From assembly GCF_024298765.1 (NCBI RefSeq), contig NZ_CP101221.1: a stretch of DNA of 1,551 bases, one strand, 5' to 3'. A model generated the notes under the pieces. It searched no databases, was not told the origin of the DNA, and saw only the letters and a list, made by a program, of their open reading frames with translations. Made by a program: the position numbers and the translations under genes. Of this stretch, positions 1-1,353 are shown piece after piece. This DNA comes from Escherichia coli. GTDB taxonomy: Bacteria; Pseudomonadota; Gammaproteobacteria; Enterobacterales; Enterobacteriaceae. How positions within the stretch are numbered: the stretch's first letter is position 1; the number at the start of each line of letters is the position of its first letter.

Positions 1-477
1 ATGTTTATTGATTCAGAAAAACGACTGAAACAACTTTCAGATGAGGCAAAGAAAAACACCGAGGATCTCGAAGAAGCAAAGAAGAATTCAAGGTTTACAC
101 AGGTATCCCCAAAAGGTTGGGAACGCGTTCGAGAGCTGCTGAAGGATAGTCAAGGCATATCAGCACTGAAGCTGTACTCATTTTTAGCGGAGCATATCGA
201 TCCTACGTGTGGCGCTGTCGTTGCGGATCAGCAATTCCTAGCTGAAAAACTTGGAGTTAGCAGAAGCACAATTATTCGGTGGCTCAATTACTTAGAATCA
301 AAAAATGCATTAGTTAGAATCCCCGTTGCTGGTAAGGTTTGTGCGTATGCCCTCGATCCACATGAAGTCTGGAAGGGATACAACACTACGAAAAACCATG
401 CAGCGTTTGTCACTAAAACACTGGTCAACAAAGACGGTGATATTCAGCGCCGAATCATGGCCATGTTTTCAAATTGA
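1..477 (+). CDS. repA: Plasmid replication initiator protein, small winged-helix Rep (pKL1 RepA-like / RepL-like), 158 aa
   Basis: Uninterrupted ORF ATG(1-3) to TGA(475-477), the only long ORF with protein-like composition. It has a charged, Lys/Glu-rich N-terminus and a clear helix-turn-helix segment (DQQFLAEKLGVSRSTIIRWLNYLESKNALVR). Size (~18 kDa) and organisation match single-gene small enterobacterial plasmids. No HUH or catalytic-Tyr motifs typical of rolling-circle Reps are evident. If the molecule is circular, an in-frame stop lies at 1510-1512 and a GAGGG Shine-Dalgarno at 1539-1543, about 8 nt before the ATG. Family assignment is from memory, not from a search. Confidence 0.85.
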   Translation: MFIDSEKRLKQLSDEAKKNTEDLEEAKKNSRFTQVSPKGWERVRELLKDSQGISALKLYSFLAEHIDPTCGAVVADQQFLAEKLGVSRSTIIRWLNYLESKNALVRIPVAGKVCAYALDPHEVWKGYNTTKNHAAFVTKTLVNKDGDIQRRIMAMFSN

Positions 478-510
478 GCCAGCGGCAGGCGGACAATCAG
501 GGGCTACGTG

Positions 511-539
511 TTAACGTTTTGACCATGATTGTCTATCCT
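511..539 (+). promoter_or_regulatory. Candidate promoter TTAACG-17 bp-TATCCT directed into the GC-rich block (alternative -35 TTGACC at 519-524)
   Basis: Sigma70-like hexamers about 35 bp downstream of the repA stop. Orientation matches what a ColE1-like primer or other plus-strand ncRNA running toward the pas-like site would need. Both hexamers are imperfect and no transcript is demonstrated. Confidence 0.2.
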
Positions 540-647
540 GCATTGCTCTTTTGCCGCCTCAAAATCCCTTGCTTGTTTTTGCTCCCCGATCCCCAGAACG
601 ACCGCGCCGCCACGGTTCCGGCAGCGCCTTGAGCGCAACCGGAAACC

Positions 648-667
648 GTCTGGGGAGAACCCCAGAC
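648..667. other. GC-rich hairpin GTCTGGGG-agaa-CCCCAGAC (8-bp stem, 4-nt loop) within the GC-rich noncoding block
   Basis: Perfect complementarity of 648-655 with 660-667, directly seen. Further hairpin-forming segments nearby: ACGGTTCCGG (611-620) with CCGGAAACCGT (639-649), and ATGCCC-tgac-GGGCAT (845-860). Confidence 0.7.
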
Positions 668-971
668 CCCCATCGCTGTAACACCGACGGTCTACGACCA
701 CCAACCAGCCGAATAGCTGCCTGTGCCGTGCAAATAGGCTTTGCAGGGGGCTGACGCGGTTCCTAGCGACCTGAAAGCCCCTGGTTAGGGGTATCGGCGC
801 GCCTGACCTCCTGAGAGCCTCTGTAAGCGTTTTTCGCGCCTTCCATGCCCTGACGGGCATTTAAAACCCGTTTCGTGTGTCTGAGAGCTTCTGAGCGCGT
901 TTGAGGGGCTATCTGGCGACTCATCCCCGAAAGAACAACAACGGAATCACCGACAACATGCGAGAGGTGAC

Positions 972-1032: not shown

Positions 1033-1068
1033 AACCGGAAACCACATTGAGCACGTACGCACTGATGC

Positions 1069-1093
1069 GGGGTGTCGGGGCGAAGCCCTGACC
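1069..1093. repeat. Left copy of perfect 25-bp inverted repeat (GGGGTGTCGGGGCGAAGCCCTGACC)
   Basis: Exact reverse complement of 1298-1322. The two copies are separated by 204 bp (1094-1297), which includes the oriT nic-like segment. Confidence 0.95.
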
Positions 1094-1260
1094 AGACGGC
1101 AAACGGAATATCGTCGCGGGTGACGGTATTACATTTGCACATCCTGTCCCGATTTCTGAGGCGTTTTAGCGGTGAACGGACGGCAAAACCATGATGGAGC
1201 TGTTGAGCGTTGAGAGCGTGAAATCTGGCAAAAATCACGGCTGGCGAGGCTTGTAGCGGA

Positions 1261-1297
1261 ATAAGCCAGTATACACTCCGCTATCGCTACGTGACTG
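1261..1297 (-). other. ColE1/pMB1-type oriT (bom) nic region, orphan (no relaxase in window)
   Basis: The minus strand reads CAGTCACGTAGCGATAGCGGAGTGTATACTGGCTTA, which as I recall it is identical over about 36 nt to the pBR322 bom/nic region. The adjacent repeat copy 1298-1322 matches the pBR322 sequence just upstream (GGGTGTCGGGGCGCAGCCATGACC) with 2 mismatches. The ColE1 MbeA nick is reported within CTGG|CTTA, i.e. between plus-strand 1265 and 1266 here. Sequence and nick position are from memory. Confidence 0.6.
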
Positions 1298-1322
1298 GGT
1301 CAGGGCTTCGCCCCGACACCCC
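1298..1322. repeat. Right copy of perfect 25-bp inverted repeat (GGTCAGGGCTTCGCCCCGACACCCC)
   Basis: Exact reverse complement of 1069-1093, 25/25. Identity stops at both ends (1297 and 1323 do not pair with 1094 and 1068). Confidence 0.95.
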
Positions 1323-1324
1323 AA

Positions 1325-1353
1325 AAGGGCGTTGCGTTGCGCGCAACACCCTT
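1325..1353. repeat. GC-rich palindromic hairpin (core GTTGCGCGCAAC 1336-1347, outer arms AAGGG/CCCTT)
   Basis: Perfect 12-bp palindrome with flanking complementary pentamers, directly seen. It sits between the oriT-like segment and the AT-rich tract. The GTTGC/GCAAC motif recurs at 1331-1335, 1469-1473 and 1479-1483. Confidence 0.8.

Follow-up and report, generated by a model that had tools for sequence, protein, structure and literature searches.

The DNA analysed here, referred to as the window, is a 1,551-nucleotide (nt) stretch of Escherichia coli DNA that makes up a complete circular plasmid, a cryptic member of the pKL1 family typed as Col(MG828). Several records of exactly 1551 bp from E. 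coli, Shigella and Klebsiella are 99.9-100% identical to the window, and MOB-suite types these matching records as Col(MG828) and mobilizable. Identity to 1549-bp plasmid records is 94-95%; pKL1 itself is a small cryptic plasmid of 1549 bp from E. coli KL4. The window carries one credible gene, repA, followed by a block of about 480 nt (positions 478-960) and a homolog of the ColE1 primosome assembly site (pas). The subject of this analysis is the block, and whether, together with the pas, it may serve as a site at which synthesis is started on single-stranded DNA.

Plasmid pKL1 was reportedly studied by Burian and colleagues between 1997 and 2003, and RepA is said by Burian et al. to be essential for replication. 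RepA of the window contains a helix-turn-helix (HTH) domain, matching the HTH_36 family and, weakly, RepL (E = 0.0043). The pKL1 replication origin (oriV) has been located upstream of rep, and the family name of RepA and the inverted repeats upstream of the gene are described in the same source (PMC3832669). A palindromic repeat, GTTGTCGCATCCWGG, is found upstream of repA in the window, and we take it to be the presumed RepA-binding repeat. In a scan of the whole window allowing up to 3 mismatches, all 4 matches fell at 1417-1466 and none in 478-960, so that the block contains no such RepA iteron or operator array. Judged by comparison with other plasmids, the plasmid is a chain of modules, which are listed in Table 1.

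Table 1. Features of the 1,551-nt window
Feature	Position	Strand	Remarks
repA	1-477	+	sole credible gene of the window; 158-amino-acid HTH protein RepA
Module A, long imperfect palindrome (hairpin)	485-541	n/a	starts 8 nt past the repA stop codon
Variable spacer, recombination boundary between A and E1	556-600	n/a	sequence swapped in L005
Module E1, twin GC-rich hairpins	606-671	n/a	616-644 (with internal loop) and 648-667
Module E2, discrete element of ~190 nt	672-860	+	sharp 5' edge ATCGCTGTAACA; hairpin at the 3' end
Direct repeat, copy 1	811-832	+	18/22 match to copy 2
E2 terminal hairpin, ATGCCC-tgac-GGGCAT	845-860	+	stem kept, loop variable
Module E3, conserved and poorly structured spacer between E2 and pas	861-960	+	travels with pas
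Direct repeat, copy 2	881-902	+	inside module E3
Homolog of ColE1 ssiA-type pas	961-1062 (match 959-1062)	+	adjoins the block and travels with it
Homolog of IncI1/R64-type origin of transfer (oriT)	1068-1162		91% identical to the sequence immediately upstream of nikA in L004
Homolog of ColE1-type bom	1262-1325		100% identical to L011

To establish whether the block encodes a protein, we used an alignment of 87 distinct homologous fragments to the window. In no frame of the block did the variable sites follow a codon rhythm (p = 0.27-0.96), whereas repA from the same contigs, taken as a control, had 40, 25 and 106 variable sites at codon positions 1, 2 and 3 respectively (p = 7e-15). The 17 distinct insertion or deletion events in the block were 1, 2, 4, 5, 10 or 19 nt long, and none was a multiple of three. 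A 1506-bp relative (L005) has an annotated coding sequence (CDS) of 219 amino acids on the minus strand across the block; in the window this frame is split by single-base indels. Five open reading frames (ORFs), including the long ones on the minus strand and the L005 CDS, gave no convincing match in NCBIfam (best E = 0.17), and the L005 product, the only one scanned against Pfam, matched no family. Because the phase counts are even, the indels avoid multiples of three and the family searches gave nothing convincing, the block is noncoding, which bears out the statement of the initial annotation that it has no credible ORF. A protein-coding reading of the block, including the CDS annotated in L005, is rejected on these grounds. 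CDSs called across this region are spurious, and annotators should be warned of them.

The block is widespread and strongly conserved. It was present in 840 of 72,556 plasmids in PLSDB and in 543 of 5426 complete E. coli genomes, where 683 of its 686 places were on plasmids. Positions 478-1065 are 71-100% conserved in 10-nt windows. Block copies differ by 5-9% where the third codon positions of repA differ from those of the window by 36-54%; on one contig the order is reversed, with repA 98% and the block 94% identical. By these figures the block is under strong constraint, or is exchanged by recombination, or both. Its conservation is enough to imply a function, in agreement with the initial annotation. 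Exchange of the cassette between plasmids certainly happens, to judge from the 1433-bp plasmid L017, in which 476-1131 is 100% identical and 1132-1323 is 99% identical to the window, while its Rep is only 28% identical to RepA and its upstream region is different too. A cassette that is nearly identical in two plasmids with such different Rep proteins and upstream regions cannot carry Rep-specific origin determinants.

The orientation of the block relative to rep is equally constant. RepA/RepL-family genes were located in all fetched loci, and 70 block copies share a contig with one. In 70/70 the block lies on the same strand as rep, with the end of the pas 175-500 bp upstream of the rep start, and the opposite orientation was never seen; as the copies are not phylogenetically independent, this count is not to be read as a probability. 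The 70 copies span five Rep clades, namely those of the window, of L005 and L017 (28-30% identical to the window type), of L009 (42%), and of L007 and L008, which have no similarity to it by blastp. The same rule holds where the neighbouring gene is an IncX4 pir-like gene or an IncB/I-type repA. The RepL-type plasmids L007 and L008 carry the block without either origin of transfer. If both oriTs are subtracted from the window, about 226 bp separate the cassette from repA, compared with 175-232 bp in the RepL plasmids. By these comparisons the plasmids have a conserved architecture, [A-E1-E2-E3-pas]-[~200-bp Rep-specific origin and promoter]-[rep]. Among the possibilities that had been raised for the block, that of a cis-acting replication region is the one the evidence favours, in the form of an accessory, Rep-independent module and not of the origin itself.

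Next to the block, 961-1062 is homologous to the pas of ColE1-like plasmids that have Rop and RNAI, with 89% identity to L010 (including 62 identical bp) and 80% to L011. In L011 the Rfam model RF00106 detects a minus-strand RNAI (1595-1695), and the pas and bom lie at 2268-2348 and 2435-2498 on the plus strand. As its RNAI is on the minus strand, RNAII of L011 runs on the plus strand towards pas and bom, whose order and orientation are those of 959-1040 and 1262-1325 in the window. The initial annotation was thus right that the block takes the place of the ColE1 RNAII and origin region, in the same order and orientation. In ColE1, ssiA becomes single-stranded on the displaced strand as Pol I extends the primer, and it is there that PriA builds the primosome (PMC3167613). 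Since the pas of the window has the same orientation as in ColE1, it would be exposed by plus-direction synthesis crossing the block; the plus direction is also that of rep transcription.

This position raises the question of a diverged or alternative ColE1-like origin, in which RNase H would cleave an R-looped transcript of the block and Pol I would extend it, uncovering the pas some 100 nt further downstream. Besides the shared order and orientation, the arrangement in L003 would fit such an origin, because E2 is followed there by a pas at 100-135 nt despite an unrelated spacer. We consider it highly improbable. Local alignment of 478-958 with the RNAII/origin region of L011 (1561-2267) scored 19, against a null mean of 19.9 (sd 2.2), and blastn with a word size of 7 against ColE1-like sequences found nothing to the left of 959; an earlier failure to align the block with ColE1 RNAII agrees with this result. 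Rfam at E <= 10 gave no RNAI or RNAII match in the window, although the same model finds the RNAI of L011. Plasmids with the block generally lack RNAI, which among 20 of their contigs scanned occurred only on apparently chimeric multi-plasmid contigs. The suggestion that the block is a diverged remnant of a ColE1-like origin is therefore unsupported. The ~360-480 nt available to the left of the pas are shorter than the 555 nt of RNAII and have no credible promoter, and RepA is the reported replication protein of the family, with oriV upstream of its gene (PMC3832669).

The base composition of the block had been described as changing sharply at the repA stop codon. The change is real, with windows of 36-49% GC in repA and 61-67% GC over about 551-850. 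Its onset is at about 550, some 70-100 nt past the stop codon, since windows over 478-550 still have 48-49% GC. After a lower stretch at 801-950 (52-56%), values of about 60-63% continue beyond 960, out to about 1150. The three hairpins named previously all exist, at 613-647 (core 616-644), 648-667 and 845-860, and a longer fourth one at 485-541 had been missed. Compared with shuffled sequences, folding was in excess over 601-671 (z = -4.35 on the plus strand and -4.85 on the minus strand), over 484-560 (z = -4.05) and, less so, over the whole block (z = -2.35 and -3.43 respectively). Segments 672-760, 740-866, 861-960 and 961-1065 folded no better than shuffles (z = -1.06 to +1.58). Excess folding is thus restricted to 484-541 and 601-671. 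The imperfect 22-bp direct repeat that had been noted is also present, and lies above chance: a match of 18/22 was reached in none of 300 first-order Markov simulations of the block.

Comparison with other plasmids indicates that 478-960 is a mosaic of separable modules. The first, A, may be a terminator-like or a protein-binding hairpin. Homology between plasmids begins 4-7 nt past the stop codon of three diverged rep types, and 528-557 is 100% conserved in about 42 homologs. The palindrome (491-551 of the window) recurs twice in the IncX4 plasmid L012, at 23459-23519 and 31360-31414; one of these copies is about 50 nt upstream of ddp1/taxC, in the presumed oriT region. Between A and E1, 556-600 is replaced in L005 by an unrelated sequence that is 49 nt longer, and in many relatives homology starts only from about 601-611. 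The two E1 hairpins are maintained across homologs, with Watson-Crick pairs in 628/630 and 503/510 alignment cells. Three positions have compensatory changes: 625-635 (CG to TA), 650-665 (CG to GC) and 651-664 (TA to CG).

Module E2 moves as a unit from plasmid to plasmid. The 29.8-kb plasmid L013 has three copies in direct orientation (21516-21693, 22372-22549 and 7518-7692) and L003 has one, all of them in unrelated surroundings; in PLSDB, 769 records match E2. The repA genes next to E2 in L003 and L013 belong to an IncB/I-complex-type replicon with the PK-repBA regulatory pseudoknot (1752-1877 and 6269-6396 respectively; in L013 it is in the repA leader), and in both plasmids E2 lies about 400 nt downstream of repA. 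The other two L013 copies flank ccdAB, an arrangement that may mark module exchange by recombination at E2. In an alignment of 48 sequences, E2 has runs that are invariant across unrelated plasmids. The stem of its terminal hairpin stays paired in every one of about 100 copies examined, whereas the loop takes 8 different sequences. In one variant both arms have changed so as to add a base pair (ATGCCGC...GCGGCAT), and in the copy of IncX4 one plus-strand pair is G.T. The sequence that follows the hairpin varies (TTTAAA, TCTAAA, TCTGTT or ATATTC). From the 3' end of E2 onward, through E3 and into the pas, 813-1029 is common to IncX4 plasmids, where it is co-oriented with the pir-like rep at a distance of about 650 bp upstream.

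One explanation for a strongly conserved yet noncoding block is that its plus strand encodes one or more structured noncoding RNAs (ncRNAs), running for example from a promoter at 511-539 to the hairpin at 845-860, with a regulatory or priming role. A promoter-like site does occur at 511-539 on the plus strand (TTAACG-17-TATCCT), within a 100% conserved stretch; it is weak, matching at 8/12 positions, and several other sites of the window match at least as well. Inspection of the alignment for compensatory changes, which had been proposed as a check, found the few in E1 and the two-arm gain at 845-860, and almost none in E2 overall. Wobble pairs of the T.G type favour the plus strand at 779-792 and at 845-860, in keeping with an RNA from that strand. 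The remaining results are unfavourable. An Rfam 15 scan of the window at E <= 10, another of the checks proposed, gave no match in 478-960, with the RNAI and RNAII models included, and at the gathering score no match fell on a block copy in 26 related loci. No promoter-like site of at least 8/12 occurs on either strand within 601-1065. In L003, L013 and the IncX4 plasmids E2 is not accompanied by module A or E1, and so not by the 511-539 promoter. No U-tract follows the terminal hairpin, and most of the block is no more structured than its shuffles. Of the ncRNA proposed initially, then, only the weak 511-539 site speaks in favour among the promoter and family searches, and we regard such an RNA as rather unlikely.

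Another explanation is a unidirectional terminator or insulator of transcription. Its hairpins would stop plus-strand transcripts coming from repA or other genes upstream, possibly with the help of Rho on the C-rich part at 550-720, and so shield the oriTs, the origin and the rep promoter. The invariable position of the block upstream of, and in line with, origin and rep would suit this function, as would the start of module A immediately after three types of rep gene, the C-rich plus strand over 501-700 (GC skew -0.19 to -0.27) and the conserved GC hairpin at the end of E2. The E2 copies of L013 lie 30-400 nt downstream of plus-strand genes (ccdB, an ATPase gene and repA); this co-orientation tells little, because nearly all genes of L013 are on the plus strand. 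None of the block hairpins is followed by a run of T residues, and a scan for intrinsic terminators found none in 478-1065, the only ones in the window being at 423-401 and 71-59, both on the minus strand. Moreover, terminators and rut sites do not normally need invariant runs such as those of E2, and a terminator would not account for the priming site to which the block is always linked. A terminator or insulator is accordingly judged unlikely, slightly less so than an ncRNA.

Invariant runs of primary sequence do suggest recognition by a protein, and this need not be a priming protein. The block could hold sites for proteins of the host or of a helper plasmid, for example a relaxosome accessory site for the neighbouring oriTs, a locus for multimer resolution or stability, or a fork-pausing site, or it could be a selfish repeat of low function that spreads through recombination. 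The region 478-1323 travels as one unit with the two oriTs, and copies of hairpin A adjoin the taxC/ddp1 oriT region of IncX4; E2, with its sharp boundaries and its occurrence in multiple copies, looks mobile, and the natural variant L016 (NZ_CP054164.1, 1393 bp, labelled complete circular) is colinear with the window except that it lacks 615-773. Against sites linked to transfer, the block occurs in L007 and L008 without oriTs. A search for an XerC-spacer-XerD core of 28-30 bp found only candidates with 8/22 mismatches at best in the whole plasmid and none in the block, and the window contains no DnaA box and no strict IHF consensus. E2 has neither terminal inverted repeats nor an obvious target duplication. 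That the block diverges so little compared with synonymous sites speaks against junk, although homogenisation by recombination could mimic constraint. Taken together, such sites or a selfish repeat seem unlikely. Four specific candidates were rejected by inspection of the sequence only: a Tus/Ter site, whose core GTTGTAAC is mismatched and variable; an attC site, whose core sites do not fit; an IS200/IS605-type PATE, for which there is no matching 5' hairpin; and a Chi site, which is not conserved in the majority variant.

The reading that we prefer, at somewhat less than an even chance, is that 478-960 together with 961-1062 forms a Rep-independent, strand-specific accessory cassette for lagging-strand or single-strand initiation, resembling the single-strand origins (sso) and single-strand initiation sites (ssi) of other replicons. 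Priming is favoured because the cassette is Rep-generic, co-oriented, noncoding, constrained, coupled to a pas and placed directly upstream of the origin. In this scheme Rep would open or nick the origin upstream of rep, and the fork would travel in the direction of rep transcription. The plus strand of the cassette would then be exposed as single-stranded DNA, last of all on the 1.5-kb circle. Its folded hairpins and the pas would recruit the host priming machinery (the PriA primosome, DnaB and DnaG), and the displaced strand would be converted to duplex, the cassette acting as a lagging-strand or single-strand origin made up of a cluster of sso/ssi signals. The same signals could also prime complementary-strand synthesis after mobilisation through either of the adjacent oriTs. 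Modules E1-E3 would accordingly take part in priming, and would do so as single-stranded DNA.

Several known systems offer parallels. The pas is homologous to the ssiA of ColE1/pMB1, an n'-pas of the phiX174 type that depends on PriA, and has the same orientation relative to bom and RNAII; the block sits where leading-strand synthesis would arrive from. Unlike ColE1, the plasmid depends on a Rep protein and replicates from an origin upstream of rep, and the block has no homology to RNAII, RNAI or the ColE1 origin. The pHW126-like plasmids (pHW126, pIGRK and pIGMS31) are likewise small and enterobacterial, have a RepL-related winged-helix Rep, and share the order [ssi-like palindrome]-[~250-bp origin]-[rep]. 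Their ssi is dispensable for replication, and its loss raises the copy number and causes multimers. They differ in that pIGMS31 has no nucleotide similarity and no significant Rep similarity to the window (best E = 0.35), and in that the putative accessory region of the window is composite and ~460-580 nt long where theirs is a single palindrome. The block also resembles the sso of rolling-circle plasmids in being noncoding, hairpin-bearing, Rep-generic, co-oriented and just upstream of the origin and rep; it lacks the hairpin with -35 and -10 elements of the type used by RNA polymerase, and most of it is not unusually structured. Finally, the occurrence of E2 in several copies per plasmid among larger replicons recalls the G4- and phiX-type ssi of F, R6K, R100 and ColE2. 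Experimentally defined ssi signals were reportedly found by Nomura et al. in 1991 to occur in several copies in F, R6K and R100.

A number of results weigh against a priming function. No similarity was found between E1-E3 and characterised ssi (G4 oric, phage sequences and pIGMS31). The best local score of the block against phage G4 oric was 26, compared with a shuffle mean of 26.2, and blastn at E <= 10 against a phage collection returned only misfiled plasmids of this family and vector-derived pas, with no G4 or other microvirus. Homology to n'-pas is confined to 959-1062, none being found within 601-960. E2 and E3 fold like shuffled sequence. RNAalifold gave a covariation term of -0.25 for the whole of E2, which is almost none; this is partly because the sequences are more than 80% identical and because the pattern used to search metagenomes fixed two stem sequences (GGGTATCGGCGCG...TTCGCGCC), which biased part of the metagenome alignment. 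Scanning all positions against all others for covariation gave too much noise to be of use. The strand evidence is mixed: the T.G wobbles at 779-792 and 845-860 favour the plus strand, and the candidate stem at 706-719 has 96 A.C cells on the plus strand, equivalent to G.T on the minus strand. The CTG in the loop of 845-860, a possible requirement for DnaG, is lost in the variants taaa, taac, taag and tcac. Lastly, E1 and half of E2 may be dispensable, because L016 does without 615-773; that deletion is either a viable natural variant or an assembly artefact.

Elements of the cassette were found with at least seven replicon types: the five RepA/RepL clades, the IncB/I-type repA and the IncX4 pir. 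It is possible, if doubtful, that E2, together with E1 and E3, represents an undescribed family, either a new enterobacterial single-strand origin or priming signal or a structured RNA, which has spread as a unit among these replicons. The simplest reading of the block is that it represents a hitherto undescribed sequence family within a known class of accessory elements, in a well-known plasmid family. No current view is overturned by this; a known kind of accessory function is filled in. Plasmids of this family, at 1.5 kb, are among the commonest replicons of E. coli, yet annotation is lacking for two thirds of their sequence. Should the modules prove to be priming signals, they would form a compact natural toolbox for converting single-stranded to double-stranded DNA, and would help to explain how plasmids that have an oriT and no relaxase become established after transfer.

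A Rep-independent cassette common to different Rep types also matters for plasmid typing. The label Col(MG828) is attached to L001, L005, L007 and L009 despite their diverse replication proteins (a 158-amino-acid RepA, a 146-amino-acid Rep and proteins annotated as RepL), and also to L017, whose 143-amino-acid Rep is close to that of L005. Plausibly, the probe used for Col(MG828) typing targets the common noncoding cassette instead of a replication gene, which would explain the use of one label across these Reps.

The region between the cassette and repA contains two origins of transfer, in a plasmid that has no relaxase gene. A perfect 25-nt inverted repeat is shared between them, with arms at 1069-1093 in the IncI1-type oriT and 1298-1322 in the bom. 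If the oriTs work as in their parent plasmids, IncI1-type and ColE1-type helpers would presumably nick opposite strands. RefSeq annotates a hypothetical protein of 73 amino acids, WP_158414302.1, at 921-1142 on the minus strand, spanning the pas and the IncI1-type oriT. Since no family match was obtained and known cis sites lie within its span, this gene call is probably spurious.

Some members of the family have been deposited under unexpected names. Two PLSDB entries are assigned to a Staphylococcus aureus RN6390 plasmid (NZ_CP090002.1) and to Corynebacterium renale pCR1 (NC_004833.1), and genomes of 1.4-1.9 kb called 'Escherichia phage' (OX638291.1, OR844749.1 and OR844798.1) are also family members. 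All of these deposits are probably due to contamination or mislabelling. On a 4.4-kb metagenomic contig (L112), a STAXI RNA motif (RF01728, 78.9 bits) was found at 417-590 on the plus strand, with a block copy some 180 nt away.

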